This document shows positions 1-28,547 of a stretch of DNA of 64,000 bases, one piece after another. The stretch spans positions 256,001-320,000 of the forward strand of contig OZ241883.1 in NCBI GenBank assembly GCA_965203445.1, written 5' to 3'. The notes below the pieces were generated by a model. The model was not told the DNA's origin and made no database searches. It saw only the letters and a list, made by a program, of their open reading frames with translations. Each line of letters opens with the position of its first letter. Within the stretch, counting starts at the first letter, position 1. A program made the translations under genes and the position numbers. This stretch comes from Candidatus Oxydemutator sp. (GTDB lineage Bacteria > Pseudomonadota > Gammaproteobacteria > Poriferisulfidales > Oxydemutatoraceae).

Positions 1-167
1 ATCATCAGGATGTTTTTCGGCGTGATCTCGTCGCGCAGATGCCGCTCCAGCTGCATCCTGCGCCAGCGATTGCGCAGCGCGATTGCGACCGCGCGCTTGG
101 CGTCGTCCTGCCCGATGATGTGCTTGTCGAGCTCCTGCACGATTTCCCTGGGCGTCATGACCGACAC
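1..167 (-). CDS. hslU: ATP-dependent protease ATPase subunit HslU, 5' part (runs off window start)
   Basis: Manual translation [37 protein letters not shown]...ITPKNILM; GTG at 167 with AGGAG upstream; follows hslV. Confidence 0.95.
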
Positions 168-206
168 GATGCTCTCCTAGATGATCTCGTTTGTTTTTGG
201 ACGCGG

Positions 207-740
207 CTACAGCCGTTCGACGACCAGTTCGCCGTTGGTGTAGATGCAGATGTCGGCGGCTATCAGCAGCGACTCGCGCACCACGGCTTCGGCGTCGAGC
301 GTCGAATGCCGCAGCAGCGCGTGCGCCGCGGCGCGCGCGTAATTACCGCCCGAACCTATCGCAATCAGATTGTCTTCCGGTTCGATGACGTCGCCGGTGC
401 CGGAGACTATCAGCGACGACGCCTCGTCGGCGACCGCAAGCAACGCCTCCAGGCGGCGCAGGCTGCGGTCGGTACGCCAGTCCTTCGCCAACTCGACCGC
501 GGCGCGCATCAACTGCCCGCCGTACTCCTGCAACTTGTTCTCGAAGCGCTCGAACAGCGTAAAAGCATCGGCGGTGCCGCCGGCAAAGCCGGCCAGCACG
601 CGGTCGCCGTACAGCCGTCGCACCTTGCGCGCGTTGCGTTTGACCACCGTGTCCCCCATCGAGACCTGGCCGTCGCCACCCATGACGACGCAACCGTCGC
701 CGCGCACCGACAAAACCGTAGTACCGTGGAAGGTCTCCAT
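207..740 (-). CDS. hslV: ATP-dependent protease peptidase subunit HslV
   Basis: [10 protein letters not shown]-terminal Thr protease motif, [28 protein letters not shown]. Confidence 0.97.
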
Positions 741-776
741 CGAGGGGATTATATACGCAGCGCAAAAATCCCCGTG

Positions 777-1388
777 TCAGATCGGCAGGTTCGAAACGTA
801 GGCCGCGGCGGCGACGACGGTGCCGATGAAGGCAATCAGCGTCATCACGTTCCACCGGATTATCCGCGACTCCAGGTCGGATATTCTCCGGTCGAGACGC
901 AGCTCCACGCCCATGATCTGTCTTTCGAGATCGGCGCGCAGGGCCACCCCGTCGGCGCGCACCTCGGAACGCAGCACGCCCATCTCGGAACGCAGCGCGT
1001 CCATCTCGGAATGCAACACGCCCATCTCGGAACGCAGCGCGTCCATCTCGGAATGCAACACGCCCATCTCGGAACGCAGCGCGTCCATCTCGGAACGCAG
1101 CACGTCCATCTCGGAACGCAGCGCGTCCATCTCGGAACGCAACACGCCCATCTCGGAACGCAGCGCGTCCATCTCGGAATGCAACACGCCCATCTCGGAA
1201 CGCAGCGCGTCCATTTCGGAACGCAGCGCGTCCATCTCGGAATGAAGCGAAGCCAGGTCACCGTGAACGGCGGTCATGGCGTTTTCAAACCGGCCGCGTG
1301 TGACCGGTTCGTTCCAGTTCACCGAGGACGCCTCCAGTTGCCCCGTTTGCGGGTTTGTCGGTGTTTCTTTTGTCATTGTTTTTCGCAT
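777..1388 (-). CDS. Coiled-coil membrane-anchored protein, DUF1640/CCDC90-like, with 13 heptad repeats
   Basis: ATG 1388 with AAGGAG; heptads MDALRSE/MGVLHSE/MGVLRSE; C-terminal LESRIIRW followed by a hydrophobic helix. Confidence 0.75.
   Translation of the reverse strand: MRKTMTKETPTNPQTGQLEASSVNWNEPVTRGRFENAMTAVHGDLASLHSEMDALRSEMDALRSEMGVLHSEMDALRSEMGVLRSEMDALRSEMDVLRSEMDALRSEMGVLHSEMDALRSEMGVLHSEMDALRSEMGVLRSEVRADGVALRADLERQIMGVELRLDRRISDLESRIIRWNVMTLIAFIGTVVAAAAYVSNLPI
963..1235. repeat. Intragenic tandem repeat, 13 x 21 bp
   Basis: Unit about CTCGGAACGCAGCGCGTCCAT repeated head to tail without spacers; codes the heptads. Confidence 0.95.
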
Positions 1389-1494
1389 TGCGGTTCTCCT
1401 TGTTGCTCGCGCAAAAAAGAAAACCACTGTGCCGTCGGCAAAGGGCAGCATAACCACAACCGGAACAAAAGGCACGCTTTGGCCGACGAACGGT

Positions 1495-1524
1495 AAAAAG
1501 CCAGTCGGCAAAGGGCCGACCGGC
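1495..1524 (-). terminator. Putative intrinsic terminator after xerC
   Basis: Minus strand GCCGGTCGGC-CCTTT-GCCGACTGGC followed by TTTTT. Confidence 0.6.
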
Positions 1525-1557
1525 GCGCACAAAGAAACGGGCCGGCCGCCGTCCACG

Positions 1558-2460
1558 TCATCGCCGTTTGCGCGCGCGCGGGTGTGCGCGGTCATATACC
1601 CCGGCGAGATGCTGAAAATCCAGGTGGGTATATACCTGCGTCGTGCCGACGTCGGCGTGACCCAGCAGTTCCTGCACCGCGCGCAGATCGCCGGACGATT
1701 CGAGCACGTGGCTTGCGAACGAGTGGCGCAGCATGTGCGGGTGCAGGCGCCGCGCCAGACCGTGGCGGCGCGCGAACAGGCGCATGCGTATCTGCACCGC
1801 GCGCGCGCCTATGCGCCCGCCGTGGCGGGCCGTGAACAGCGCCGGTTCGGCGGCGCCCGCGCAATCGGCGCGCGCGCGCAGCCACCCGCGTACGGCGTCC
1901 ACCGCGCGCGCGCCGACCGGCGTCTCGCGCTGTTTCGAGCCTTTGCCAGTTACGCGCACCAGGCCGGCGTCGAGGTCGAGGTCGTCCACGTTCAGCGACA
2001 CCAGTTCCGCCAGGCGCAGCCCCGAGGAATACGCAAGCTCGACCATCGCAAGATCGCGCACCGCCAGCGCGTCGCCGGCGGCGGCGGCGCCGTCTAGCAG
2101 GCGCGTGATCTGATCCACGCTCAGCGTCTCGGGCAGGCGCTTGTCCGCGCGCGGCGGCGTGACCGTCTCGGCCGGATTGCGCGGCGCAAGGCCATGCTCG
2201 ACGCAGTAGCCGAAAAAGCGCCGCAGCGACGACAGCTCGCGTTGCAGGGTGCGCGCGCCGATGCCCGCCACGAAGCGCCACGACACGTACTCGCGCACGT
2301 GCTCGTCGCCGACGCGGTTCCACTCGAGGTGCGCGTCCTCGAGGTAGCCGAGAAAACGCCGCACGTCGCGGGCGTACGCGTCGAGCGTGTGCGCCGAGTA
2401 GCCGCGCTCGCCACGCAGCATCTCGAGAAACCGGCGGCAGGCTTCGCGCGGCGGCGTCAC
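1558..2460 (-). CDS. xerC: Tyrosine recombinase XerC
   Basis: GLRLAEL, VTGKGSKQR, HPHMLRHSFASH, VQELLGHA, TTQVYTHL; dapF-yigA-xerC synteny; GTG at 2460 overlaps upstream stop. Confidence 0.93.
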   Translation of the reverse strand: MTPPREACRRFLEMLRGERGYSAHTLDAYARDVRRFLGYLEDAHLEWNRVGDEHVREYVSWRFVAGIGARTLQRELSSLRRFFGYCVEHGLAPRNPAETVTPPRADKRLPETLSVDQITRLLDGAAAAGDALAVRDLAMVELAYSSGLRLAELVSLNVDDLDLDAGLVRVTGKGSKQRETPVGARAVDAVRGWLRARADCAGAAEPALFTARHGGRIGARAVQIRMRLFARRHGLARRLHPHMLRHSFASHVLESSGDLRAVQELLGHADVGTTQVYTHLDFQHLAGVYDRAHPRARKRR

Positions 2461-3176
2461 GCGACCAGGCCCTCGCGCCGCGCGCACGCCTTCAGCGCGC
2501 ACCCGATCAGTTCGCCGTACTGCACCAGAAACATCGTGCCCTTGCCGGCGCGGAAACTGTCGCCGTCGGCGCTGCCGAGCGCCAGCAGGCCGAAACAATC
2601 GTCGCCGCCGGCGAGCGGCGCGACCACGGCCGAGGCGACGCGCCGCGCGAAATGGCCGAACAACGACAGCTTGATCGGGTCGTCGAACGGCCCGCAGTCG
2701 GGCTTGCCGGCCGCGGCCAGCGCGCGCAGCAGGCGCACGACCCTGGCGTCGCCGCCGTCGTCACCCAGGCCGTCCTGCGCGTCGTAGCGGCGCACCAGCC
2801 GGATCACGACCTGGTTGCCGGGCAGCCGGCGCCGCAGTTCGGCGCGCGCCACGGCGGCGACCTCGCGCGGCGTGTCCGCGTCCATCAGTCTCAGCGACAG
2901 GCGGTGCAGGCCGATGCCCAGGTTCTCGTTGGCGCGCGCGGTTTCGATGAGCGCGTCGAGCCGCTCCTTCAGCTCGCCGTTCTTGCCGCGCAACAGCGCG
3001 ACCTGTTTCTCGATGAGCGACGGTATCCTGACGCCGCCATCTTCCGCGTCGCGCACGCGCCCCAGTTCGAGGCTTTCAAGCAGGGCCGCGTGGCGCTCGA
3101 AAAAGGAGGGGTTTTCGCGCAGGTAGCGCGCGACTTCCGCGTCGCGCCGCGCGCCGTCGGCACCTTGCGCGCTCAT
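2457..3176 (-). CDS. DUF484 (YigA-like) protein
   Basis: VARYLRENPSFFERH, SLIEKQVALLR, GLLALGS...GKGTMFL; lies between dapF and xerC. Confidence 0.85.
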   Translation of the reverse strand: MSAQGADGARRDAEVARYLRENPSFFERHAALLESLELGRVRDAEDGGVRIPSLIEKQVALLRGKNGELKERLDALIETARANENLGIGLHRLSLRLMDADTPREVAAVARAELRRRLPGNQVVIRLVRRYDAQDGLGDDGGDARVVRLLRALAAAGKPDCGPFDDPIKLSLFGHFARRVASAVVAPLAGGDDCFGLLALGSADGDSFRAGKGTMFLVQYGELIGCALKACARREGLVA

Positions 3177-3994
3177 GCCGCCAGCACCCCGTCGTACACG
3201 TGCTCGCACGGTCCGGTCAGCTCGACGCCGCCCTCGTCGCGCGCGACCTCGAGCACGCCGCCCGGCAGGCGCACCTCGACGCGCGCCCCGACCAGGCCGC
3301 GGCCGGCGGCGACCACGGCCGCGGCGCAGGCGCCGCTGCCGCAGGCCGCGGTCTCGCCGACGCCCCTTTCGTACACGCGCAATTCCAGACGGCGTTCATC
3401 AACGCGGCGCATGAAGCCGGCGTTGACGCCGGCGGGAAAACATTCGTGCGCTTGCAGGCGCGCGCCGATCTCGGCGACCGGGCAGTCCTCGAGATCCTCG
3501 ACCTCGGCCACCGCGTGCGGGTTGCCGAAGCCGACCACGCCGAAACGCAAACGCAGGCCGGCGGCGTCGAACGGAAAATCATCGCCGGTGTCGCCGGCGA
3601 AGGGCACGCGCGCGGCGTCAAAAACCGGCGCGCCCATGCCGACGCAGACGCGGCCGTCGTCGCGCACGCGCATCTCGACTATGCGCTCGGCGGTGCGCGC
3701 GCGCAGCGTCGTCTTTTCACTCAGTCCGCGCGCGCGCACGAAGCGCGCGAAGCAGCGCGCGCCGTTGCCGCATTGCGCGACCTCGCGCCCGTCGGCGTTG
3801 AACACGCGGTAGCCGAAATCCACGCCGCCGTCGGGCGGCGCCTCGACCAGCAGCAGCTGATCGAAGCCGACGCCGGTGCGACGGTCGGCCAGCGAGCGCA
3901 CGCGCGCGGCGTCCGGCTCGAACGGGCGCGCGACCGCGTCGACGACCATGAAGTCGTTGCCGAGGCCGTGCATCTTGGCGAATTCGACCGTCAT
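3173..3994 (-). CDS. dapF: Diaminopimelate epimerase
   Basis: KMHGLGNDF, QCGNGARC, GNPHAV, ERGVGETAACGSGACA. Confidence 0.97.
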   Translation of the reverse strand: MTVEFAKMHGLGNDFMVVDAVARPFEPDAARVRSLADRRTGVGFDQLLLVEAPPDGGVDFGYRVFNADGREVAQCGNGARCFARFVRARGLSEKTTLRARTAERIVEMRVRDDGRVCVGMGAPVFDAARVPFAGDTGDDFPFDAAGLRLRFGVVGFGNPHAVAEVEDLEDCPVAEIGARLQAHECFPAGVNAGFMRRVDERRLELRVYERGVGETAACGSGACAAAVVAAGRGLVGARVEVRLPGGVLEVARDEGGVELTGPCEHVYDGVLAA

Positions 3995-4057
3995 GGGGAA
4001 ACCGGGGGGAACGGGGGCGGCTGCGACACCCTTGGGATTATACCGGCCGTGCGCGGC

Positions 4058-4738
4058 TCAGCGCACGGCCTCTATGCTCTTGTGCGGCAGGAATATGCCG
4101 CAGCCGAGCTTTTGTCCGTCTCCCAGACCCTGCTGCTGCAAACGCACCGTCTCGTCGAACGTCAGGCCGCCGACCATCAGGCTGGACACCACGATGTCGC
4201 CGTCGGGAACGCGCACGACGCGGCGGCGGCCGCTCATCATTTTGCGCGCGACGATGCCCTTTTGCCGCAACAGGGACGCGGCCCGTTCGAGGAAGGCGTG
4301 TTCACCGCCGTGCGCGGGCGCCGCCAGGCGGCGCGTGAACAGCGTCGTCTCGCGGCTGAGCGGATGCACGGCGGCGGCGCCGACGGCAATCTCGTAGCCG
4401 CCGGCGTCGAGCGTCGCGCCCACGAGAGCGCGCGCGTCATCGAAGCGTTGCTTCGGCAGGCGCAGGCGCAGGCGCGCGCGCCGCGACAGGTGGATCTCGT
4501 CGCGCCCGCCCTGCGGGCGCATCCAGCCGCTGCCCGACTCGGCGCCGTGGATCGAATGGATGGCCGCGAGCGGTTCGTCGTCCAGCCACGGCAATATCTC
4601 GACCAGCGCCCGGTACAGATGCCAAGCGTGGTCCGAAGGCAGGCGGCGGCAGACGACGCGAAAATGCAGGTCGGCGACGTCGTCGGGCACGCGCAACGGC
4701 CGATCTTCTTCGCCCGCCTCTCGCCAATGCGGATTCAT
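4058..4738 (-). CDS. cas6: Stand-alone Cas6-like RAMP protein (Cas6/Cmx6, Myxan-type)
   Basis: N-terminal DLHF...LPSDHAWHL, LSRRARLRLRLP, C-terminal Gly-rich loop GLGDGQKLGCGIFLP typical of Cas6. Confidence 0.8.
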   Translation of the reverse strand: MNPHWREAGEEDRPLRVPDDVADLHFRVVCRRLPSDHAWHLYRALVEILPWLDDEPLAAIHSIHGAESGSGWMRPQGGRDEIHLSRRARLRLRLPKQRFDDARALVGATLDAGGYEIAVGAAAVHPLSRETTLFTRRLAAPAHGGEHAFLERAASLLRQKGIVARKMMSGRRRVVRVPDGDIVVSSLMVGGLTFDETVRLQQQGLGDGQKLGCGIFLPHKSIEAVR

Positions 4739-4932
4739 CGGACGTTGTCGGCGGCCGAAAAGGCGGCTTCCAGCCGCGCCTCCCAGTCTTCGGGAGTATC
4801 CGCAAACGGCGGGCGCACGTCCATCTCTATGAAAATCTCGCCGGCGCGCGCACGGCTTTTGACGTATTCGACGAGTTCCCCGAAACTAGACCAGTCGCGG
4901 TTGCTCATCAGTGCCTCGCTGATTGCGAGCAT
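4735..4932 (-). CDS. Small conserved protein of sulfur oxidisers (recalled as often labelled DsrC-like, but has no Cys)
   Basis: 65 aa, MDVRPPFADTPEDWEARLEAAF motif; ATGA overlap with cas6. Confidence 0.7.
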   Translation of the reverse strand: MLAISEALMSNRDWSSFGELVEYVKSRARAGEIFIEMDVRPPFADTPEDWEARLEAAFSAADNVR

Positions 4933-4935
4933 CGC

Positions 4936-6357
4936 TCAAGTTCGACCCGATTCCGCTTTGGCGACGGGTTTGCCCGCCGGCGCCTTCCTGGCAAGTCGCT
5001 CGACTCTAGTGACGTACAGGGTCTGACCATCGTGGGTGGCCAGCCGCCAGGCGCTGACCGAAATGGACTTGGCGACGGGTCTTGGACGAGACAGCGCAAC
5101 CGCCCGTGCCGTCGTGACACCCAGCTTCAATTCGCACCCGTCGCCGTTGCTTGCGAGTTCCGACAGGATTGACTGCGCTGACGGGGGAGGTGTGACGAGG
5201 CTATGGCCGGCCCTTTGCGGGCCGTCGGCCATTTTGGCCGCCATGGCCTGAAGATACTTCGCATCCTGAACTTGCAGCCAAGGCGACGGCAACCACTCGA
5301 CGCCGGCAAGACATCCCAGCAGGCCGCCGGCCATCGCCGCCAGAGTATCGGTGTCCGCCCCCTTCTCGAAGGCTGCCCTGAGGATGCCTTGAACCGGCTG
5401 CGCCGCGTGTCGCGCCGCAAGGTACGCCGCCGCCGCCGCGCTGCTGGTTCCCGCTCCTTTGGCGCGCCCGAAGCACCCGAGATGCTTAAGAGTCGAGTGA
5501 TCGTCGGCAAGCGCCCCGGCTTGCAGTCCCTTTCGCGCCGCTTCGAGCAGTTCGCGCATTTCGCAAACCGTGTTCTCCCAAAGTTCGCCATAACGACCGT
5601 CCGTCGCCTCCTCCGCCGCCTCGAACCACGCACCGCCCTGGCGCTCGGATTTCGGCAACTGACTCCACTCGGGCGTTTGATCAATCAACAGTTCCAGCAA
5701 TTCGCCGAATCGAAGCGTGCTGCGGTTGCGGGTCAGGCACCAGGCGGCGTAGGCGTATGCCGCCGCCCCGACGAGGGCGCGCGGGTGGCCATGGGTGGCG
5801 GAACCGTCCAAAATCACGTCGTGAATAAGGGTGGCGGCGTTCGCCTGCCCGGCGAGAAACAACGCATGCGGCAGGGCGCGCATGGCCACGCCGTTGCCGC
5901 CGGCCTCAAAGTATTGGCGAACGCTGTTTTTCCGGGTGGACTTCCACGGCGGACACCCGTCGGCCCAAGCTGCGGCGGCGCGCCTGGTGGCGCCGCCGCC
6001 ACCCCGCTCGTACAGCGTCCACAACGGCAGTTCTACGCGAGTGAACGCCTTCCACCAAGCCGGGCCATGGTTCGCCCTGCTACGCGCCACCGCAAGCGTC
6101 AGCTGCGTATCATCGCTGTAGTCTCCGGCGTGAATGACTTCCTCAAACGGATGGAAACGTCCGCCGCTACGCCGCGTCCATTGCGTGAACTCCACCTGAG
6201 GGTTTGCCGAAACGATCTTGCGGACGCTCCCCGGCATCTCTTGCGGCCAGCCCAGCGCGTCGCCGGCGGCCAGCGCCAGAAAGGCGCCCTCGGCCTTCGC
6301 CAGCAGCGACAAACCCGGCCCCCGCGGCTCGTGCCGGCTGCTATCCGGCATTGCCAT
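4936..6357 (-). CDS. ADP-ribosylglycohydrolase (ARH/DraG family) with C-terminal extension
   Basis: AAGDALG, YSDDTQL, GNGVAMR, THGHP, GADTDTLAAMAGGLLG; AAGGAG 6 nt before ATG 6357. Confidence 0.9.
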   Translation of the reverse strand: MAMPDSSRHEPRGPGLSLLAKAEGAFLALAAGDALGWPQEMPGSVRKIVSANPQVEFTQWTRRSGGRFHPFEEVIHAGDYSDDTQLTLAVARSRANHGPAWWKAFTRVELPLWTLYERGGGGATRRAAAAWADGCPPWKSTRKNSVRQYFEAGGNGVAMRALPHALFLAGQANAATLIHDVILDGSATHGHPRALVGAAAYAYAAWCLTRNRSTLRFGELLELLIDQTPEWSQLPKSERQGGAWFEAAEEATDGRYGELWENTVCEMRELLEAARKGLQAGALADDHSTLKHLGCFGRAKGAGTSSAAAAAYLAARHAAQPVQGILRAAFEKGADTDTLAAMAGGLLGCLAGVEWLPSPWLQVQDAKYLQAMAAKMADGPQRAGHSLVTPPPSAQSILSELASNGDGCELKLGVTTARAVALSRPRPVAKSISVSAWRLATHDGQTLYVTRVERLARKAPAGKPVAKAESGRT

Positions 6358-7120
6358 CTTCATCTCCTTGTCGAAACTTGTGCTCCTTTGGAATTTCTCC
6401 GGAACGGAGCATATCCCTGAGCTTTTGCGGATCAAAAAAATCCGGAACAATCAGGATAGGAAGCGGGTCGGCATGAAGCATCTGCATCCGCACCGCCTCT
6501 CTCTTGGCCTGCGCTTCATTGTACACTGCAACTCCAATCACATCCCGCCATTCGACACGGTCGGGAATAAGAACCTCCGCCTGTTGGTCAGTGGGCAGAA
6601 AGGCGGGATGGAGCGGACCGCGTATGAACGTTCGGTTACCTTCTACAGTTTTTTCAAAAAGACCTTCGAATGCCTGCTCACCCTCCTGAACATATTTGCC
6701 AACCCCCGCCGCCGCATTGCGGGGGCAGAACTTCGTGCCGGGGCGCCATAGATAGTAGCACCTGATCAACAGCACGACCCAGTCTTTGAAGAGACACTTG
6801 CCTGCACTGTCGAACGGGCCGGGCGACCCCGAACCTTGCACGACGCAGTCTTTGAAGAGAGGCTTGCCTGCACGCGCTTTTTTGAAGTACCAGGCATTAG
6901 GATACTGAATGGAGCAGCATACATGATCCGGATACCCATCGAAACGATCCCTATCCGTCGGATTGAAAACCGCTCTCTCATCCTCCTTAAGCTGTTTCGA
7001 GGCGAGGACGCCATGCTGATCCGTCACTATATGCCCGAGATTACGAGACGGCGTGAAGTGACACAGTCTGGTGATGCCGCGCCTTTCAGAAGCTTCTTTG
7101 ATTGCAGTAATTTCCTTCAT
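6341..7120 (-). CDS. darT: DarT (DUF4433) ssDNA ADP-ribosyltransferase, DarT1-like
   Basis: LCHFT..RNL, DRFDG..HVCCSIQYPN, DWVVL, FCPRNAA, TDQQAEVLI with the catalytic Glu. Confidence 0.85.
   Translation of the reverse strand: MKEITAIKEASERRGITRLCHFTPSRNLGHIVTDQHGVLASKQLKEDERAVFNPTDRDRFDGYPDHVCCSIQYPNAWYFKKARAGKPLFKDCVVQGSGSPGPFDSAGKCLFKDWVVLLIRCYYLWRPGTKFCPRNAAAGVGKYVQEGEQAFEGLFEKTVEGNRTFIRGPLHPAFLPTDQQAEVLIPDRVEWRDVIGVAVYNEAQAKREAVRMQMLHADPLPILIVPDFFDPQKLRDMLRSGEIPKEHKFRQGDEDGNAG
6772..6873. repeat. Two 36-bp direct repeats (33/36 identical) separated by 30 unique bp inside darT
   Basis: 6772-6807 GCACGACCCAGTCTTTGAAGAGACACTTGCCTGCAC and 6838-6873 GCACGACGCAGTCTTTGAAGAGAGGCTTGCCTGCAC. Confidence 0.9.
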
Positions 7121-8499
7121 TGCAGTTGATACAAGGCTTTGTTATCCGGCAGCATGGCCGTAACTTGTCCGGAGTGCGTCAGCACCAGGGTGGACCTGGC
7201 CCTGGTGATGCCGACGTATAACAGACGTCCATTGCGCGTCGCCGCTTCTCCACCCCCTAGAAGTTTGACATCGGTGGGATCGGGCCAATGCTTCCTCGAA
7301 AGAAGCGGCAAAAAAACCGTGTCGAACTCCAGTCCCTTGGCGGCATGATAGGTTCCGAAGAAGATGCCGGGGCCGCCCGGCCATTGATCCAGCGTACGAT
7401 GAAGCCGCATCGCACCGGGTATCTGCCACTCTTGTTTGCGCCTTCTGAAAAGAATGGCCACGGTTCCCGTCCGCGCAAGCCCGGTCGCCTGGGAGATAAC
7501 AAACTGTTTTTCCTGCTGTTCATCCGGCAGTTCCCTTAGCGCCGGCGGCGGCTCGTCGGCGACTGGTGCCTTGGGTTCGACCAGATCGGGATCGCGCGGA
7601 AAATACGGCATTTTGGCAAGCGCCAAGGCAAGTCTGGCAATCTGCGGCATGTTGCGATAGTTCTCCTTAAACCGCCAAATCGGATTTTTTACACGAAGAC
7701 CGGCGCTTCGCCACGACACGCGGTGTCCGTATATCTGCTGGGCGATGTCTCCGAAGAAAGTCAGGCTGCCGTTTGGCGGAATCGCCGCCACGAGCGAGCG
7801 CAACATCTCCGGAGAGAAATCCTGCCCCTCGTCAATGACGACGTGGCGGTAACGGCGCTCGCTTCCGTCCCGTTGCAATTCTTTAAGAACGCCGCTGGCA
7901 AGGTCGTTCCAATCGTACAGCTTGCCGTGGCTACGGCGTTCAATCAGGTAGCGTTCGTACAAGCCGAACACGGCGGCCCGTTCGTTTCGCACGACACGAG
8001 TACCGGCTCGACCTGTGCGTTCGGCTTCGATGTAGTCTTGCTCCTCGGTGATTCCTTGCTGCTGGATCCATGCAAACTCTTCATCCCAGAACTCGGGCGG
8101 GCGCTCCAAGGAGGTGCCGGACAATCCATCGGTCTGCGCTCGCCTTATCACATCGCGTATGCATTGCCGCCGCTCCTCAGAGCCGCAGATACCTCCCCAT
8201 GACAACTTGCCTCGGGACGAGAGATAGCCTGTTGCGAACTTGTGGTAATTCTCTACGGTGACGGGTTTCTGATGCGCGCCGGCCAAGTGCCTCATATAGG
8301 TGACCAGACACTTGTTGAACGTCACCAGCAGCGTTCGCCCGCCATGGTCGGTGTTTGGATGGGACAAGTAGTTCGAGCGGTAAATGGCGAGCGTGGTCTT
8401 GCCGCTGCCGGCAGTGCCTAATACCACCGTGTGGCCGTGCGCGGGCAGGTACAGCACTTCCTTCTGCCGACCCGTCGGTCGCGGTAGCGGAGCGGCCAT
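7117..8499 (-). CDS. Compact superfamily 1 (UvrD-like) helicase/ATPase
   Basis: Walker A GTAGSGKT, LLVTFN, Walker B IDEGQD, GDIAQQIY, ENYRN, TYHAAKGLEF, LLYVGITRAR. Confidence 0.9.
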   Translation of the reverse strand: MAAPLPRPTGRQKEVLYLPAHGHTVVLGTAGSGKTTLAIYRSNYLSHPNTDHGGRTLLVTFNKCLVTYMRHLAGAHQKPVTVENYHKFATGYLSSRGKLSWGGICGSEERRQCIRDVIRRAQTDGLSGTSLERPPEFWDEEFAWIQQQGITEEQDYIEAERTGRAGTRVVRNERAAVFGLYERYLIERRSHGKLYDWNDLASGVLKELQRDGSERRYRHVVIDEGQDFSPEMLRSLVAAIPPNGSLTFFGDIAQQIYGHRVSWRSAGLRVKNPIWRFKENYRNMPQIARLALALAKMPYFPRDPDLVEPKAPVADEPPPALRELPDEQQEKQFVISQATGLARTGTVAILFRRRKQEWQIPGAMRLHRTLDQWPGGPGIFFGTYHAAKGLEFDTVFLPLLSRKHWPDPTDVKLLGGGEAATRNGRLLYVGITRARSTLVLTHSGQVTAMLPDNKALYQLQ

Positions 8500-8584
8500 C
8501 AGACGACGTGCCTCATGAACTCGTTTCGCTTCATCGGGATGGGCAAGTGAGCGTCGTTCATCAATTCGGGCGGCGGGAGCGGGG

Positions 8585-8590
8585 ATTATA
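8585..8590 (-). promoter_or_regulatory. Putative -10 box for the helicase-darT-ARH cassette
   Basis: Perfect TATAAT on the minus strand about 85 nt upstream of the helicase; no convincing -35. Confidence 0.4.
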
Positions 8591-8643
8591 ACTGTATGCG
8601 CTCGCCAATTTCCGACGGGGCGGCGGGGCGCCTTGGTACTACG

Positions 8644-9555
8644 TCACGTCGGCGGACGCCAGCCGGCGGCGCCGAGGCGTTTGCGGTAGCGGGCGCGGTA
8701 CAGCAGGCGGGGGGCGTCGTCTTGGTCCTCGAAGGCGTCGCGCGTGTGCAGGACGTTGTTGCAGACGACGCCCTCGGACGCGGCCAGGCGGCGGTGTATG
8801 CGCCAGTCGCTCGTCGCCAGTATCTCGCCAAGGCGCGTCAGCGCGTCGCGGCACTCGGCGCGCCATTTTATATGCCGCGCGCGCGCCGTATAGCGCGTAA
8901 GCAGCGCGCCGTCGCGCGCATCCACCGCGAACACCGGCACGCTGCGCGCCGGGCGTATCTGCCCGCCGTCCTCGACGTTGGCCGGCAGCGTCATCGCGCG
9001 CGGGTGCATCAGCTGCTCGACGTGGCGCGGGTCGTCGTCGCGCAACAGAATATAGACGAGTTCGGGATCGAGATAGCAATTCGCGCCGCCGCTTGCCGCC
9101 GCGCGCACGCAATACATCGAAAAAGCGCGCACGGCGTCGGCGGCGGAGTTGTAATAGCCGTCGGTGTGCCATTGCAGCGCGCGGCGCGTGTATGGAACGT
9201 AGCGGCTGCCCTCGAGCGCGCGGACGTGGCTGATGCGCCCGGCGTCGGCACACGGGTTGGCGATGAGATCGCCAAGCCCCAGTTGCTGGCCCATGCGCTT
9301 GAACGCGGCGCCGTCGCGCAGCGGCTTCGCAAGACGATAGAAACACAGGTTGGCGCGGCGGCAGTTGGCGATGATCGCGGCGCGCTCGGCGTCGCTCAGC
9401 GCCTGCGCGTCGGCGACGACGACGGTCAGTTCGTCCGCCGAGCGCGCGCGCGTCGCCAGCTTGCGTTCGCGCCAGCGTCGGTACGCGGTTTCGTTGCCGG
9501 GCACGAACGGCGAATCGGAACGGTCGGCGGCAGTCGTCGGGAGCGGATGCGGCAT
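8644..9555 (-). CDS. TauD/TfdA-like Fe(II)/2-oxoglutarate dioxygenase-fold protein
   Basis: WHTDGYY (HxD) and NNVLHTR (distal His); start could be 9555 or 9588. Confidence 0.8.
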   Translation of the reverse strand: MPHPLPTTAADRSDSPFVPGNETAYRRWRERKLATRARSADELTVVVADAQALSDAERAAIIANCRRANLCFYRLAKPLRDGAAFKRMGQQLGLGDLIANPCADAGRISHVRALEGSRYVPYTRRALQWHTDGYYNSAADAVRAFSMYCVRAAASGGANCYLDPELVYILLRDDDPRHVEQLMHPRAMTLPANVEDGGQIRPARSVPVFAVDARDGALLTRYTARARHIKWRAECRDALTRLGEILATSDWRIHRRLAASEGVVCNNVLHTRDAFEDQDDAPRLLYRARYRKRLGAAGWRPPT

Positions 9556-9611
9556 ACTGCGCCCACTATATAGCGCGTGCCGCGCCAAACGACAAGAACA
9601 CGTTCCGACAA

Positions 9612-9710
9612 AAACCCCTTTCCCAGAGGGAGAGGGTTTGATTATGGGCCTGCAGCTGCCCTCTCCCAGAGGGAAAGGAGTTCATTTTTTGGCCCTTTTT
9701 GGCCCAAGGG
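9612..9710. repeat. REP-like palindromes (CCCTCTCCC-N-GGGAGAGGG type) plus TTGGCCC sub-repeats
   Basis: AAACCCCTTTCCCAGAGGGAGAGGGTTT at 9612-9639 and CCCTCTCCCAGAGGGAAAGG at 9659-9678. Confidence 0.65.
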
Positions 9711-9728
9711 CTATGCCAATAGGCCATC

Positions 9729-9757
9729 TTGATACCCTTCGGCAGTTTAACTATAAT
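9729..9757 (+). promoter_or_regulatory. sigma70-type promoter of the dsr operon
   Basis: TTGATA (9729-9734), 17 bp spacer, TATAAT (9752-9757). Confidence 0.75.
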
Positions 9758-9846
9758 CCTTAGTTACCCATTTGGAGGCCGTGCCGGTCACGGCGGGTTT
9801 GCGCCAAGCGCTTGACCCAAGCACAAAACGACCACGGAGGAACGTT

Positions 9847-11112
9847 ATGACGGCTACGCAGAAGCATCAGACGCCGATGCTGGACGAATTGGAGAAAGGC
9901 CCCTGGCCGAGTTTCATCTCCGGAATAAAACGCCTGCGCGACCAGCACGAGGACGAACGCGTAAGCGGCGTCGCCAACGACCTGCTGGGTCAGCTCGAAC
10001 ACTCGTACGAGACGCGCCGCGGCTATTGGAAAGGCGGCACCGTCAGCGTCTTCGGCTACGGCAGCGGCATCATCCCGCGCTTCTCGGAGGTCGGCGCGGC
10101 GTTCCCCGCCTCCAAGGAGTTCCACACGCTGCGCGTGCAGCCGCCGGCGGGCAACTACTACACCACCGACATGCTGCGCAAACTGGCCGAGAGCTGGGAG
10201 AAATGGGGCTCCGGACTGGTGACCTTCCACGGCCAGACCGGCAACATCATGTTCATCGGCGCGAGCACCGAGAACACCCAGCATTTCTTCGACGAGATCA
10301 ACGATTACGGCTGGGACCTCGGCGGCGCCGGGCCGTGCGTGCGCACCGGGCAGTCGTGCGTCGGCGCGGCGCGCTGCGAGCAGTCCAACATAGACGAGAT
10401 GCGCGTCCACCGCACGCTGCTGAACAACTTCACCGACGACGTACACCGTCCGTCGCTGCCCTACAAGTTCAAGTTCAAGGTTTCCGGCTGCCCCAACGAC
10501 TGTATGAACTCGATCGAGCGCTCCGACCTCGCGATCATCGGCACCTGGCGCGACGACATGAAGGTGGATCAGCGCGAGGTCAGGCAATACGTCGAGAAAA
10601 AGGGCCGCCAGTACATCACCGACAACGTCATCGCGCGTTGCCCGACGCAGGCGCTGTCGCTGGCCGAAGACGACACGCTCGAAGTGGACAACCGCAACTG
10701 CGTGCGCTGTATGCACTGCCTGAACGTGATGCCCAAGGCGCTGTCGCCGGGCGACGACAAGGGCGCGACGCTGCTGATCGGCGGCAAGCGCACGCTCAAG
10801 ATCGGCGATTTGATGGGCACCGTCATCGTGCCGTTCATGAAGCTCGAGAGCAAGGAAGACTTCGAGCGCCTCGTCGAGATCGCCGAGGAGACGATAGACT
10901 TCTGGGCCGAGAACGGGCTGGAGCACGAGCGTTGCGGCGAGATGATCGAACGCATCGGTCTGGTCAACTTCCTCGAGGGAGTCGGCCTCGACGTGGATCC
11001 GAACATGATCTCCGACCCGCGCACCAGTTCCTACGTGCGCACCGACGACTGGGAGCAGGAGGCGGCCAAATGGTTCGAGCACAAACGAGAAAAGCTGGCG
11101 GCCACCGCCTAG
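9847..11112 (+). CDS. dsrA: Reverse dissimilatory sulfite reductase alpha subunit
   Basis: TPMLDELEKGPWPSF, YWKGG, siroheme/FeS motifs CVRTGQSC and GCPNDC; GGAGG before ATG 9847. Confidence 0.98.
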   Translation: MTATQKHQTPMLDELEKGPWPSFISGIKRLRDQHEDERVSGVANDLLGQLEHSYETRRGYWKGGTVSVFGYGSGIIPRFSEVGAAFPASKEFHTLRVQPPAGNYYTTDMLRKLAESWEKWGSGLVTFHGQTGNIMFIGASTENTQHFFDEINDYGWDLGGAGPCVRTGQSCVGAARCEQSNIDEMRVHRTLLNNFTDDVHRPSLPYKFKFKVSGCPNDCMNSIERSDLAIIGTWRDDMKVDQREVRQYVEKKGRQYITDNVIARCPTQALSLAEDDTLEVDNRNCVRCMHCLNVMPKALSPGDDKGATLLIGGKRTLKIGDLMGTVIVPFMKLESKEDFERLVEIAEETIDFWAENGLEHERCGEMIERIGLVNFLEGVGLDVDPNMISDPRTSSYVRTDDWEQEAAKWFEHKREKLAATA

Positions 11113-11172
11113 GCAAGCCCTAAGGCGAACCCCTAGACACGCGACACGCCGCACCGAACAAGGAGACTATAG

Positions 11173-12249
11173 ATGGCGCAACACCACCGCGAACCGATAG
11201 AGTCGGGCTGCCCCGACGGTTTTCAATACATGCATCCCGTGATGCGCAAGAACTACCGCAACTGGGCCTACCACGAAGACCCGCGCCCGGGCGTGCTCAA
11301 GCACGTTGCGCGCGACGGCGACGACGCGATATGGACGGTGCGCGCCGGCACCCAGCGCATCCTCGACGTGTTCACGCTGCGCAAACTGTGCGACATCGGC
11401 GACCGCTACGCCGACGGCTACGTGCGCTTCACGATACGCAGCAACATCGAGTACATGGTCGCCGACGAAAGCAAGGTCATGCCGCTGATAGGCGCGCTCG
11501 AGGACGCCGGCTTCGTCGTCGGCGGCACCAAGAACTCGGTGACGATGATCTCGCACACGCAAGGCTGGCTGCACTGCGACATTCCGGGCACCGACGCCTC
11601 GGGGGTGGTCAAGGCGATGATGGACGAGCTGGTCGAGGAGTTCAAAAACTGGAACATGCCCAACCGCGTGCACATCACCACGTCGTGCTGCCAGATCAAC
11701 TGCGGTGGCCAGGGCGACATCGCGATCAACGTCCAGCACACCAAGCCGCCGAAGATCAACCACGACCTGGTGTCGAACGTGTGCGAGCGCCCGTCGGTGG
11801 TGGCGCGCTGCCCGGTGGCGGCGATCCGCCCGGCGATGGTCAACGGCAAGCCGTCGCTCGAGGTGGACGAGAAAAAGTGCATCTGCTGCGGCGCGTGCTA
11901 TCCGCCGTGCCCGCCGATGCAGATCAACGACCCGGAACACACCAAGCTGGCGATCTGGGTCGGCGGCAACCACTCGAACGCGCGCGGCAAGCCGACCTTC
12001 CAGAAACTGGTCGCCGCCGGCATTCCGAACAACCCGCCGCGCTGGCCCGAGGCGACCGCGGTGGTCAAGAAAATCCTGAAGACCTACAAGGAAGACGCCA
12101 AGGACTGGGAGCGGATCAACGACTGGATCGAGCGCATCGGCTGGCCGCGCTTCTTCGAGCTGACCGAGCTGCCGTTCACCAAGTACCACATAGACAACTG
12201 GCTGGGAGCCAGACGCAGCCTCAACTCCTCGGCGCACGTGCGCTTCTGA
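11173..12249 (+). CDS. dsrB: Reverse dissimilatory sulfite reductase beta subunit
   Basis: HTQGWLHC, SCCQINCG, CICCGAC, PNNPPRWPE, ERIGWPRFF. Confidence 0.98.
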   Translation: MAQHHREPIESGCPDGFQYMHPVMRKNYRNWAYHEDPRPGVLKHVARDGDDAIWTVRAGTQRILDVFTLRKLCDIGDRYADGYVRFTIRSNIEYMVADESKVMPLIGALEDAGFVVGGTKNSVTMISHTQGWLHCDIPGTDASGVVKAMMDELVEEFKNWNMPNRVHITTSCCQINCGGQGDIAINVQHTKPPKINHDLVSNVCERPSVVARCPVAAIRPAMVNGKPSLEVDEKKCICCGACYPPCPPMQINDPEHTKLAIWVGGNHSNARGKPTFQKLVAAGIPNNPPRWPEATAVVKKILKTYKEDAKDWERINDWIERIGWPRFFELTELPFTKYHIDNWLGARRSLNSSAHVRF

Positions 12250-12269
12250 CGCCGCCGCCGGCGCCGTTG

Positions 12270-12662
12270 ATGAAACTGTCGCTGCTGGTCAACGAGGGCC
12301 CGTACACGCACCAGGCGTCCGACAGCGCGTACCGCTTCGCGCTGGCGGCGTTGGCCAAGGGGCACGAGATCTACCGCGTCTTTTTCTACCACGACGGCGT
12401 TCACAACGGCACGCGCCTGGGAGCGCCGCCGCAGGACGACAGAAACCTGCCGCAGCTATGGTCGGAGCTGGCCGCCAGGCACAAACTCGATCTGGTGGTA
12501 TGCGTCGCCGCGGCGCAGCGCCGCGGCCTGCTCGACGGCGACGAAGCCAAACGCCACGGCAAGGACGCCGACAACATCGCGCCCGGCTTTCGCATCTCGG
12601 GTCTCGGCCAGCTGATAGAGGCCGGCGTGCAGTCCGACCGCCTGGTGACGTTCGGCGATTGA
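12270..12662 (+). CDS. dsrE: Sulfurtransferase DsrE
   Basis: NEGPYTHQASDSAY, FFYHDGV, VCVAAAQRRG, GLGQL. Confidence 0.95.
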   Translation: MKLSLLVNEGPYTHQASDSAYRFALAALAKGHEIYRVFFYHDGVHNGTRLGAPPQDDRNLPQLWSELAARHKLDLVVCVAAAQRRGLLDGDEAKRHGKDADNIAPGFRISGLGQLIEAGVQSDRLVTFGD

Positions 12663-12692
12663 CGCCGCGCCCCGCTCGCACCGACACAAACG

Positions 12693-13124
12693 ATGGACGA
12701 AGCACAAGACAACGGCGACGGCACGGTCAAGAAGTTCCTGTACATGAACCGCAAGGCGCCGTACGGCACCGTGTACGCGTTGGAGGCGCTCGAAGTCGTG
12801 CTGATCGCGGCCGCGTTCGACCAGGACGTGAGCATAGTGTTCGCCGACGACGGCGTCTATCAGCTGATGAAGGGGCAGGACACCGGCGACGTCGGCATGA
12901 AAAATTTCTCGCCGACCTACGCGGCGCTCGGCGACTACGACGTCAAGAAGATCTACGTCGAGCGCGAGTCGCTCGAGGAGCGCGGCCTGTCGCCCGGTGA
13001 CTTGCAGGCGCTGACCTACGAGGACGAAGACGACGACTACAAGGAAAAAAACTCGCTGCACGTCGTCGCCCGCGAGCAGCTGGCGAAGCTGATCGCCGAA
13101 CAGGACGTGGTTCTGAGTTTTTGA
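12693..13124 (+). CDS. dsrF: Sulfurtransferase complex subunit DsrF
   Basis: NRKAPYGTVYALEALE, AAFDQDV, DDGVYQL. Confidence 0.95.
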   Translation: MDEAQDNGDGTVKKFLYMNRKAPYGTVYALEALEVVLIAAAFDQDVSIVFADDGVYQLMKGQDTGDVGMKNFSPTYAALGDYDVKKIYVERESLEERGLSPGDLQALTYEDEDDDYKEKNSLHVVAREQLAKLIAEQDVVLSF

Positions 13125-13142
13125 CGGCCGCGGAACGACGCG

Positions 13143-13454
13143 ATGGCCATGCTGCACATAGTCAACAAATCGCCGTTCGAGCGCAACGCGCTGGACGCCT
13201 GCCTGCGCCTGGCCGCGCCCGACGCTTCGGTACTGCTGATCGAGGACGGCGTCATCGCCGCAACGCGCGCCGCGCGCGTCGCGGACAAGGTGACCGACGC
13301 CATGCAGAGGGGGCTTGCGTTTTTCGTGCTGGCACCCGACGTGCGCGCGCGCGGCCTCGGCGAGGAGCGCCTGATAAGCGGCGTTACCGCGGTGGATTAC
13401 GACGGCTTCGTGGACTTGGTGGCGAACCACGATAATGTACAATCATGGCTGTGA
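13143..13454 (+). CDS. dsrH: Sulfurtransferase complex subunit DsrH
   Basis: MLHIVNKSPF, LLIEDGV, DYDGFVDLV, QSWL. Confidence 0.95.
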   Translation: MAMLHIVNKSPFERNALDACLRLAAPDASVLLIEDGVIAATRAARVADKVTDAMQRGLAFFVLAPDVRARGLGEERLISGVTAVDYDGFVDLVANHDNVQSWL

Positions 13455-13488
13455 CGCCTGCAACCAGGACAACGACGGAGGAAAAACC

Positions 13489-13821
13489 ATGCCTTTGGAA
13501 GTAGATGGGAAAACCTATGAAACCGACGAGGAAGGCTACCTCGCCAACCTGAGCGACTGGAAACCGGAGTTGGCGACCGCGATGGCCACCGCCGACGGCG
13601 CCGAGCTGGACAGCAACCACTGGGAAGTCATCAACTTCCTGCGCGAGTACTACGAGGAATACCAGATCGCCCCGGCGGTGCGCGTGCTGACCAAGGCCAT
13701 CGGCAAGAAGCTCGGCAAGGACAAAGGCAACAGCAAGTATTTGTACGAACTGTTTCCCTACGGCCCGGCCAAACAGGCCTGCAAATACGCCGGCCTGCCG
13801 AAACCGACCGGCTGCGTCTGA
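13489..13821 (+). CDS. dsrC: Sulfur carrier DsrC
   Basis: TDEEGYL, LFPYGPAKQACKYAGLPKPTGCV with both C-terminal Cys; GGAGG RBS. Confidence 0.97.
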   Translation: MPLEVDGKTYETDEEGYLANLSDWKPELATAMATADGAELDSNHWEVINFLREYYEEYQIAPAVRVLTKAIGKKLGKDKGNSKYLYELFPYGPAKQACKYAGLPKPTGCV

Positions 13822-13879
13822 AGCGCCGCCGCCGGCGCTCGCACCGGCTTTCCGTGCGGGGGCCGGGGCCGGAATCGTC

Positions 13880-14629
13880 ATGTCATTGCTGACCGCAGCC
13901 TACGCGGCCTTGTTCTATCTGGCGACCGCGGTGCTCGTCGGCGGCGTCGCCTACCGCATATGGCTGTACCGGCGCGCGCCGGCGCCGCTGAAGATCCCGA
14001 CGACGCCGGCGCCGACCACGCGCCGCGGCGTCGTCTTTCGCATGTTCAAGGAAGTCGTGTTTTTCGAGAGCCTGTTCAAGTCGAACAAGTGGATCTGGCT
14101 GTTCGGATGGCTGTTTCACTTCGGCCTGCTGCTGGTGCTGCTGCGCCACCTGCGCTACTTCACGCAACCGGTGTGGTCGTGGGTCGAGTGGCTGCAACCC
14201 GTCGGCAAGTACGCGTCGCTGATGATGGTCGCCGGTCTCGCCGGCCTGTGGCTGCGCCGCATCGTCGTCGACCGCGTGCGCTACATCTCGTCGCCGTCGG
14301 ATCACCTGATGCTGCTGCTGCTGCTTTTGATCGGCGCGACCGGCATGTGGATGACCTTCGCAAACCCGGTCGACATCGTCTCGATGAAGATGTTTTTCCT
14401 GGGACTGATGCGCCTCGAACTGCACCCGCTGCCGCCCGACGCGCTGATGAACGTGCACCTGGCGCTGGTGGCGGCGTTGATGATCGTGTTTCCGTTCAGC
14501 AAACTGCTGCACGCGCCCGGCGTCTTCTTCAGCCCGACGCGCAACCAGGCCGACGACGCGCGCGACAAGCGCCACGTCGCGTCCTGGGCGCTCAAACTGG
14601 AACACTCCGGAGGGCGCCCCGATGGCTGA
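13880..14629 (+). CDS. dsrM: Membrane b-type cytochrome DsrM
   Basis: NarI-like hydrophobic protein, FPFSKLLH; operon position. Confidence 0.93.
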   Translation: MSLLTAAYAALFYLATAVLVGGVAYRIWLYRRAPAPLKIPTTPAPTTRRGVVFRMFKEVVFFESLFKSNKWIWLFGWLFHFGLLLVLLRHLRYFTQPVWSWVEWLQPVGKYASLMMVAGLAGLWLRRIVVDRVRYISSPSDHLMLLLLLLIGATGMWMTFANPVDIVSMKMFFLGLMRLELHPLPPDALMNVHLALVAALMIVFPFSKLLHAPGVFFSPTRNQADDARDKRHVASWALKLEHSGGRPDG

Positions 14630-16145: not shown

Positions 16146-16229
16146 ATGCGGCCCATGGTGCGGCTCATGGCGCGGCCCGTGATGCATCATAGGCGCCGCG
16201 ACGACGCCGAACAACGATAGGAGCAACCG

Positions 16230-22089: not shown

Positions 22090-22145
22090 GGATGCCGTTG
22101 CCCCTATAATAAGGGATTACCGACAACCAACGCTAGCAGGAAATC

Positions 22146-22502
22146 ATGGCCAGAGTAACGGTCGAGGATTGCCTCGAAAAATTAGGAAACCAATTCAAGG
22201 TGGTGCAGGTCGCCGGGCACAGGGCGCGCCAACTCGAGATCGGCATGCCCGCGAAAGTCGAGGAAAACGGCGACAAGTCCACGGTCATCGCGCTGCGCGA
22301 GATCGCCGAGGGCCTGGTCACCGAGGAGGTCCTGGACGAACCGATCAACGAGTTCGAGGATCTCGACAGCGAACTGTCGCATCTGCTGCGGGCGGACGAA
22401 CCGGGCGCGACGATAGACGACGCTTTGCCCGACGACGAAGCCTCGCTCGAGGCCGGCGACGACCCGCAAGACGGCGCCACGCGACAACCTTCGGAGGAAT
22501 GA
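22146..22502 (+). CDS. rpoZ: RNA polymerase omega subunit
   Basis: [27 protein letters not shown]; acidic tail; TATAAT at 22105-22110 upstream. Confidence 0.95.
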
Positions 22503-24763: not shown

Positions 24764-24789
24764 CCCCCCAACCCGAGGCGAGGCGGAAC

Positions 24790-25173: not shown

Positions 25174-25197
25174 AGCGCGGCGCCGCGGCCGCCGGCA

Positions 25198-28533: not shown

Positions 28534-28547
28534 CCAGGCGCCCCGCC

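Follow-up and report, generated by a model that had tools for sequence, protein, structure and literature searches.

What is a gene of the Cas6 family doing beside the genes for the oxidative, or reverse, dissimilatory sulfite reductase (Dsr) pathway, in a stretch of DNA without a CRISPR array? The stretch, here called the window, is the 64,000 nucleotides at positions 256,001 to 320,000 of contig OZ241883.1 from Candidatus Oxydemutator sp. (assembly GCA_965203445.1). The gene, for a Cas6-like protein of 226 amino acids, shares an ATGA overlap with an upstream gene for an acidic protein of 65 amino acids. An initial annotation of the window proposed a domesticated Cas6 fold acting in RNA processing or regulation of sulfur oxidation rather than in immunity; its description of the two genes, including the Gly-rich loop characteristic of Cas6, agrees with the open reading frames (ORFs) and the sequence, and it overlooked that the two lie at the center of a module of four genes. 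The conserved unit is an operon of dsrQ (a tauD-like dioxygenase gene), the 65-amino acid gene, the Cas6-like gene and an RspA-type gene of the DsrC family, divergent from dsrA. A non-immune role linked to Dsr is very probable for the Cas6-like protein, and the locus looks like a case of an immune-family protein re-used for core energy metabolism. The window features of most concern are these.

3173..3994, minus strand: dapF (PF01678), sitting where most genomes have the RspA-type gene
4058..4738, minus strand: Cas6-like gene, Dsr-linked clade of the Cas6/Cmx6 family, 226 amino acids (PF09559 and TIGR02807)
4735..4932, minus strand: gene for the acidic, cysteine-free microprotein, the upstream partner, 65 amino acids (ORF)
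4735..4738, minus strand: ATGA start/stop overlap of these two genes (TCAT on the plus strand)
8644..9588, minus strand: gene for the TauD-like dioxygenase (PF02668), known in published work as DsrQ, with which the module begins
9729..9794, plus strand: TTGATA-N17-TATAAT resembling a promoter (9729-9757), followed by a leader hairpin (9778-9794), of dsrA, a candidate RNA target and no more than a lead, from sequence and folding
9772..11112, plus strand: dsrA, divergent from the module, an ORF that clusters with dsrA/B genes of other loci
11173..12249, plus strand: dsrB, an ORF with 72-95% identity to the full-length dsrB matches of the searched genomes
13489..13821, plus strand: canonical dsrC, C-terminus ...PKPTGCV, from a tblastn search of the genome itself (alignment A3)

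Relatives of the Cas6-like protein are encoded in 526 stretches of a species-level genome collection, 80 of which were compared together with 20 loci from relatives of the window genome. The usual order is dsrC-H-F-E-B-A on one strand and, on the opposite strand, the TauD-like gene, the 65-amino acid gene, the Cas6-like gene and, last, another gene of the DsrC family. In tallies over the 80 loci, which count only those with enough flanking sequence, the 65-amino acid gene is directly upstream of the Cas6-like gene in 76 of 78 and is itself directly preceded by dsrQ in 64 of 71; dsrAB is divergent in 52 of 60, and in 70 of 78 a Cys-less DsrC-family gene comes downstream of the Cas6-like one. 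The two middle genes are spaced by -4 to +43 nucleotides in 18 other genomes. The neighborhood is kept across guanine plus cytosine (GC) contents of 33-66%, and by record title its hosts include gammaproteobacterial sulfur oxidizers such as Thioalkalivibrio denitrificans (L103, which has the full module), Thiogranum, Thiohalobacter and Ca. Porisulfidus, and one metagenome-assembled genome (MAG) of the Burkholderiales. A search of the 80 loci with the proteins of the cas operon that the window genome has elsewhere found no other cas protein.

The order has its variants. One genus (L029, L046 and L047) has the pair away from dsr and dsrQ, beside aroK/aroB, one family has the TauD-like gene and the pair beside rpsF, and one relative has the 65-amino acid gene on a separate contig. 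In seven of the 80 loci (L100, at 7334-8005, L072, L088, L111, L112, L114 and L122) the 65-amino acid and Cas6-like genes are separated by an extra gene, for an acidic protein of 223 amino acids that matches no Pfam family; in one of these, L112, the 65-amino acid gene was not found in the whole genome. The sole CRISPR-like array in the 80 loci, with 22 repeats of 66-nucleotide period, is at 14671-16060 of L065, downstream of the module at a distance of about 6 kb.

Presence of the pair follows dsr and not CRISPR. Three samples were used, 61 relatives, 61 genomes centered on G061 (the genome of locus L103) and a class sample of 400 scored genomes; they overlap and the genomes are related, and the figures are to be read as strong associations, not as counts of independent events. 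Of the 61 relatives, an identical set of 50 carries the Cas6-like gene and the 65-amino acid gene. All but one of these have dsrB (49 of 50, the exception being G051, which is 73% complete), and the 11 relatives without the pair, three of them from one genus of the same family, are all without dsrB too. The gene cas1 was found in 25 of the 61 relatives and is absent from 29 of the 50 that bear the pair, among them all 16 pair-bearing members of one family, whose genomes measure 0.7-1.2 Mb, and the single-contig genomes G001, G030, G034, G036 and G048. In the sample centered on G061, dsrB is in 19 genomes and the same 19 have a Cas6-like match of at least 243 bits; one more has a weak match (118 bits) that resembles the canonical Cas6 paralogue introduced below. 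In the class sample 121 genomes have dsrB, 125 have a Cas6-like match of any strength and 115 have both. Of the six with dsrB only, three are under 85% complete; among the 10 with a Cas6-like match only, two matches (one in G422, a genome flagged as unpublished) are weak and canonical-like, and most of the others come from incomplete MAGs. That the pair recurs near dsr genes of sulfur oxidizers had been offered in the initial annotation, with a Cas6/Cmx6 phylogeny annotated for rdsrAB and for cas operons or arrays as the check; the present survey bears it out strongly, extends it to a four-gene module and has a Cas6-family gene kept independently of CRISPR-Cas.

That the protein belongs to the Cas6 family is not in doubt from its matches to PF09559 (E 3.8e-54, 184 bits with a cut-off of 26.7; Pfam) and TIGR02807 cas6_cmx6 (129.4 bits with a cut-off of 98.85; NCBIfam), and PADLOC Cas6 models match too. 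Its AlphaFold (AF2) model, with a mean predicted local distance difference test score (pLDDT) of 85.8 and a predicted template modeling score (pTM) of 0.82, has the predicted fold of Cas6, two ferredoxin-like/RNA recognition motif domains and a C-terminal Gly-rich loop, GLGDGQKLGCGIF, at residues 204-216. All leading Foldseek matches in the PDB are Cas6 proteins, the best being 8fcu_B, the Cas6 of a type I-B CRISPR-associated transposon Cascade (E 1.4e-15, template modeling scores 0.77/0.82, 21% identity).

The window genome, a single contig of 2,378,814 bp, has a second PF09559 gene at 1397519-1398166 whose product is 30% identical to the window protein. Twenty Dsr-linked sequences were aligned and placed in a tree with 30 homologues of this paralogue, 29 of them labeled canonical by homology and source names and the genome's own copy by its checked cas context. 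The two sets part on a single branch with 100/99 support, and long branches meet there, for which the tree program gave a warning; the tree thus drawn places the Dsr-linked sequences in a clade separate from canonical Cmx6. Common to both clades are D23, F26, D36-H37, H61, G65, R93, P95, R136, F149, S197 and Q201 and, in and around the loop, G204, G206, G212-C213-G214, F216 and P218, C213 being conserved at 0.97 in the canonical clade. Invariant in the Dsr-linked clade are W5, C30, P50, A66-E67-S68, W72, R74, P75, S85, R87, H219 and K220, and the most conserved stretch among the orthologues is the loop region, GLGxxxxLGCGIFLPHKSI. The pattern is read as a core and loop retained under a remodeled surface, which would mean that the RNA specificity is new or else that the ligand is.

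The 65-amino acid protein has no match in Pfam, NCBIfam or PADLOC. Its alignment (A2) has 12 invariant columns and a mean column identity of 61% over hosts of 33% to 66% GC, with the invariant stretch GE.F...D.(R/K)PPF.DTP..W...LE..F, and the orthologues are acidic, with isoelectric points (pI) of 4.0-5.5. The predicted model has a pLDDT of 90; it had no Foldseek match in the PDB at E <=0.001, and the best Z score of a wide VIA-align search was 4.2, with none of the matches convincing. Matches in the ESM Atlas are confined to the Atlas's own unnamed clusters, auto-named 'DsrC family', and some databases label it 'sulfur relay protein DsrC'. Kinship with DsrC, TusE or RspA is unsupported, and was rejected on the lack of a PF04358 match, an hhalign probability of 0.8% between A2 and A3 and the lack of cysteine in 19 of 20 orthologues; the earlier claim that the partner, itself without cysteine in the window, is no DsrC-type carrier holds on the last two counts. 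Among 401 genomes of the class sample the gene occurs in 107, all but one of them (106) with the Cas6-like gene too, and because of this nested presence and the tight coupling of the genes the two products are treated as functional partners. A predicted complex of the Cas6-like protein (A1) with the microprotein (A2) scored 0.01, the mark being 0.32, and permits no call either way.

As to the outer genes of the module, residues H141, D143, H281 and R294/R298 of DsrQ are invariant in 12 orthologues; by motif position we take them to be the HxD...H iron triad and the Arg that binds 2-oxoglutarate. On these residues DsrQ is apparently an active Fe/2-oxoglutarate dioxygenase. The RspA-type protein is without both C-terminal cysteines and ends in (R/K)KGGY, for example ...GLPESRRKGGY in L030, L039 and others, not in PTGCV. 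PMC7596348 credits Lenk et al. 2012 with the name dsrQ for the tauD-like gene that lies upstream of dsrA; the gene was found in most aerobic or facultatively aerobic chemotrophic sulfur oxidizers, and its product has been the subject of speculation that it releases sulfite from sulfonates. PMC9371685 is a further source for the speculation. The covered text of PMC6018796 names 'DsrQ/DsrU (unknown functions)', and that of PMC8477390 and PMC9371685 calls Cys-less DsrC relatives RspA, 'regulatory sulfur-related proteins'. Methylovirgula thiovorans HY1 has, in this order, rspA (104 amino acids), a hypothetical protein of 89 amino acids, another of 66 amino acids (pI 4.9), dsrQ and dsrA, and both hypothetical proteins are detected in the proteome table (PMC9371685, supplement file 3); an alphaproteobacterial counterpart of the module may therefore include a microprotein of this kind and no full-length Cas6-like gene. 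In the literature covered, which does not extend to Lenk et al. 2012 or Venceslau et al. 2014, no publication was found that connects a gene of the Cas6 family with dsr; either of those two papers may describe these genes, for instance as 'dsrU'.

The copy of the module in the window is unusual in two respects, being split by an island and lacking the RspA-type gene. At the locus of the same genus, L048, the end of the TauD-like gene overlaps the start of the 65-amino acid gene and no island genes were found; from there the order is Cas6-like gene, dapF, DUF484 and xerC, as in the window. Because of the overlap and the lack of the island in L048, the 3.6-kb block is taken as an insertion between the first and second genes of the module. 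It consists of the following.

4936..8499, minus strand: the inserted island as a whole, ADP-ribosylglycohydrolase (ARH), DarT-like and UvrD-like (Pfam, PADLOC, lower GC)
4936-6450, minus strand: ARH, 504 amino acids
6341-7120, minus strand: DarT-like, 259 amino acids (PF14487, 72.9 bits)
7117-8499, minus strand: UvrD-like helicase, 460 amino acids

The ARH stop codon is 3 nucleotides ahead of the start of the 65-amino acid gene. The DarT-like toxin of the island is here paired with a partner of the ARH type, not a macrodomain; as called, its ORF and that of the ARH share positions 6341-6450. The composition of the pair is that of the core genome and not of the adjacent island, as first described: GC is 0.70 across 4001-4800, 0.71-0.74 in dapF/xerC and 0.68-0.70 in the TauD-like gene, against 0.54-0.60 in the island stretch 6401-8400. 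An RspA-type gene was not found in the window genome, where the only tblastn match is the canonical dsrC at 13489-13821, nor was one seen at L048. Both genes of the pair are intact in the window and retain all family-invariant residues. Ratios of nonsynonymous to synonymous substitution rates (dN/dS) with the same-genus copy are 0.36 for the Cas6-like gene and 0.21 for the 65-amino acid gene, and in two other lineages 0.03-0.17; the overall range is 0.03-0.36 for the two genes together and 0.03-0.21 for the smaller one, values that place both under purifying selection.

What, then, might the module do? Even chances are given to the reading in which the Cas6-like protein, of the Cas6/Cmx6 RNA-endonuclease family, has been exapted: it would stand outside CRISPR-Cas, serve the oxidative (reverse) Dsr pathway as an accessory passed on vertically, and belong to a dsr regulatory module. 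The Gly-rich loop is the RNA-backbone-binding element of RAMP (repeat-associated mysterious) proteins, and because it is under the strongest conservation, retained RNA binding is favored, though by a little only. A divergent position beside a promoter is typical of local regulators and, because the operon is divergent at the dsrA promoter, a local regulatory unit is the simplest reading. The module would then be a local regulator of dsr expression, in which the Cas6-like protein would bind, and perhaps cleave, a structured RNA; the most plausible place for this RNA is the dsr transcript, with the hairpin of the dsrA leader as an example; the acidic microprotein would modulate it, DsrQ would give an input dependent on O2 and 2-oxoglutarate, and the RspA-type protein would act at the DNA level. 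A role specifically as regulator of the dsr transcript is somewhat doubtful. More tentative still, and rather unlikely as a whole, is the boldest form of the proposal, that Cas6 was domesticated as a sequence- or structure-specific RNA factor controlling the dsr operon in most gammaproteobacterial sulfur oxidizers, lineages whose genomes measure about 1 Mb among them, with the 65-amino acid protein as modulator and DsrQ as an O2/2-oxoglutarate switch that maybe hydroxylates the microprotein or the RspA-type protein.

A candidate target was sought in the dsrA leader. The probable start of dsrA in the window is the ATG at 9847, where a Shine-Dalgarno sequence and the ATG are seen. The promoter-like sequence at 9729-9757 ahead of it is sigma70-like and near consensus. 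By eye, a hairpin lies 35-75 nucleotides before the start in most of 47 leaders, and seven loci (L074, L082, L089, L091, L092, L119 and L127) share one with the loop (A/G)(A/G)CGTACG and eight predicted pairs, three of them with compensatory changes. Hairpins are easy to find, and those of the leaders are a lead, not evidence. Shared 9-mers in the intergenic regions between dsrA and dsrQ were uninformative, and an Rfam search of window positions 1-20000 at E up to 1 gave just two sub-threshold small RNA matches, unrelated to the locus. A search for sequencing runs listed two, both kept as contigs and from one study, and neither on record as RNA.

Several points weigh against this regulatory proposal. 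The RNA target, binding and cleavage of the Cas6-like protein remain predictions. Residues invariant in the canonical clade, R172, R173, K180, G207-R208-R209 and the His at 53 (window numbering), are variable in the Dsr-linked clade, and R172, R173, K180, R208, R209 and the His among them are probably RNA-contacting; the pI of the orthologues ranges from 5.8 to 9.7 and is below 7 in 11 of 20. The hairpin shared by seven leaders could equally be a DNA operator or an RNA structure, the dsrA leader of the window folds no better than shuffled sequences (z -1.25), and no common hairpin was found in the intergenic region after the Cas6-like gene in 57 loci. Partnership and linkage have their exceptions: 17 of the 123 Cas6-like-positive class genomes are without the 65-amino acid gene, and one MAG, G062, has none in its genome; G268, G407 and G489 of the class sample have dsrB and no Cas6-like gene; and G282, which is 100% complete, has both genes of the pair and no dsrB match at E 1e-60. 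Kinship among the genomes makes the co-occurrence counts overstate the number of events. The window operon itself, split, without the RspA-type gene and with the highest dN/dS (0.36), may have a relaxed function in this genome. What stands of the original proposal of a domesticated fold, on the strength of co-occurrence and a separate clade, is that the protein is very probably non-immune and dsr-linked; its RNA-processing part is plausible.

The strongest alternative, unlikely and still well ahead of the others, is that the Cas6 fold serves as a protein scaffold only, with no RNA binding; the protein would work with DsrQ, the RspA-type protein or both, be it as a subunit, as a chaperone or as a partner in handling sulfur. 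One example would be an O2-dependent reaction on a sulfonate or on protein-bound sulfur that gives sulfite to the Dsr pathway or takes it from there, and the two invariant cysteines, C30 and C213, could take part. The loss of canonical basic invariants with the gain of clade-specific ones, the near-neutral or acidic pI of 11 of the 20 orthologues and the constant linkage to an apparently active dioxygenase would all fit such a role, as would the speculation on sulfonates in the covered parts of PMC7596348 and PMC9371685. However, the Gly-rich loop is the best conserved part of the protein and the DH motif is kept, C213 is nearly as constant among the canonical sequences, so that it is no newly gained redox residue, and in the genus of L029, L046 and L047 the pair persists away from DsrQ.

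Improbable, though retaining RNA as the ligand, is a target other than the dsr transcript, with a tRNA or other cellular RNA acted on by a modifying or hydroxylating unit that includes the RspA-type protein and DsrQ. Relatives of DsrC and TusE act in tRNA 2-thiouridine synthesis, Fe/2-oxoglutarate dioxygenases include nucleic acid-modifying enzymes, and the RspA-type gene does follow the Cas6-like gene in nine-tenths of the loci (the 70 of 78 above). To our knowledge, however, TauD-family enzymes do not include RNA enzymes, the module tracks dsrAB and is not universal, and the window genome has the pair without the RspA-type gene.

A further alternative makes the protein an ordinary CRISPR Cas6 that processes precursor CRISPR RNA from one of the arrays elsewhere in the genome, in trans, its place beside dsr being due to chance. 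Within the window, as the initial annotation had it, there is no CRISPR-type array and no cas gene: no cas1 match or array was found in genome 256001-320000, and PADLOC found no Cas protein among the 132 ORFs of at least 140 amino acids from 12.4 kb onward. The genes nearest the Cas6-like gene were screened by Pfam, NCBIfam and PADLOC, positions 1-3994, on the dapF-hslV side, lying outside the PADLOC screen. The nearest Cas-like match in the window is that of a 691-amino acid helicase at 25198-27273 to generic Cas3/PbeA/DpdF models, and it is weak (about 42 bits). The term 'orphan' is true of these 64 kb only. A k-mer scan of the genome found four CRISPR arrays, at 134211-143300, 1381277-1389556, 1459730-1462315 and 2279634-2282680 of its single contig (G000:C1), with 147, 117, 40 and 42 repeats of lengths 28, 36, 36 and 37 nucleotides, and cas1 matches adjoin each of the four. 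A type I-MYXAN-like operon is present in complete form and includes a canonical Cas6/Cmx6: beside the 117-repeat array, the second PF09559 gene leads genes for Cas3, Cas8 (Csx13, MYXAN), Cas7, Cas5 and a Cas4-Cas1 fusion. Three same-genus relatives that were searched have no cas1, in contrast to the four large arrays of the 2.38-Mb window genome.

The initial annotation held that a type I system or array in the genome, served by this Cas6 in trans, would overturn its proposal. The system and the arrays are there, and the window protein passes the equivalog cut-off of TIGR02807. Service in trans is nevertheless disfavored, and has been rejected as very improbable, on phyletic, clade and neighborhood data: the operon has a Cas6 of its own that is 30% identical, orthologues are kept in the 29 relatives without cas1 with presence tracking dsrB, the clade is separate, and the 80 loci have no cas neighbors. 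The phyletic data argue against such service, though in this one genome it may conceivably occur.

The least credible account, also rejected, is a type II toxin-antitoxin pair of an RNase toxin and an upstream antitoxin, which the pair resembles in its small acidic upstream protein, its 4-nucleotide overlap, its RNase-family neighbor and its position adjoining a DarT-like island, and from which it differs in being non-mobile and single-copy, not patchy or multi-copy, with a strictly vertical, dsr-tied distribution that includes genomes of about 1 Mb, a neighborhood kept over the whole GC range of the hosts, the composition of the core and not of the island, and a 'toxin' that is at times alone (the 17 of 123 genomes mentioned above).

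Elsewhere in the window, an ORF at 777-1595 (minus strand, 272 amino acids) contains a tandem repeat of 21/42 nucleotides, 13.7 copies at 963-1249, that encodes a heptad-like LRSEMDA/GV. At the window end, 63817-64000, is a tandem repeat of 78-nucleotide period; the k-mer scan flags numerous clusters of short repeats like it in other parts of the genome, genome 1265-1285 kb being one place noted. PADLOC also marks a second defense-like stretch at about 22000-35000, with these members.

22037-24763: PDC-S33-like
24340-25173: PD-T4-2_B-like
25198-27273: the helicase with weak Cas3/PbeA/DpdF matches
27754-28533: mad2-like
31561-32559 and 32468-33322: two type II methyltransferases
33186-34685: phospholipase D (PLD)/type IV restriction endonuclease-like protein

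Cas proteins are nearly always read as immunity genes. The equivalog model labels the present clade 'type I-MYXAN Cas6/Cmx6', and hundreds of genomes, going by the 526 loci, probably have in their annotation a CRISPR protein that lies outside CRISPR. If the regulatory proposal is true, a Cas6-family protein has a stand-alone cellular role, independent of CRISPR, in a major biogeochemical pathway, and CRISPR biology would have in it a clean example of a family member that left for housekeeping. For sulfur microbiology the comparison defines a near-universal, uncharacterized four-gene companion of oxidative dsrAB that is kept even in genomes of about 1 Mb with little dispensable DNA, and regulation of the reverse Dsr pathway, possibly by oxygen, becomes testable.

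How does the module compare with what has been described? The gene at 8644-9588 of the window is the dsrQ of the sulfur oxidation literature, and the last gene of the module in other genomes is of the RspA type, the function of both being given there as unknown or speculated; in the covered parts of PMC7596348, PMC6018796, PMC9371685 and PMC8477390 the two genes in between are unmentioned, save as hypotheticals of the HY1 kind. With canonical Cas6/Cmx6 of type I-MYXAN and I-B-like systems, represented by the genome's own paralogue and 8fcu_B, the Dsr-linked protein shares family, fold, DH motif and the GxG...GCGxF loop. It differs in being without cas or array neighbors, in being kept in genomes without cas1, with presence that tracks dsrAB, in its identity of about 30% to the paralogue, in having its own invariants, W5, C30, AESGxGWxRP and LPHK, and in its 65-amino acid partner. 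Use of a Cas6 for regulation has a counterpart in Thermus thermophilus, where, in the part of PMC12102369 that was covered, a type III-associated Cas6 is a negative regulator of the type I-B system. That Cas6, in contrast to the Dsr-linked protein, stays within CRISPR-Cas; the protein described here is outside it and tied to dsr.

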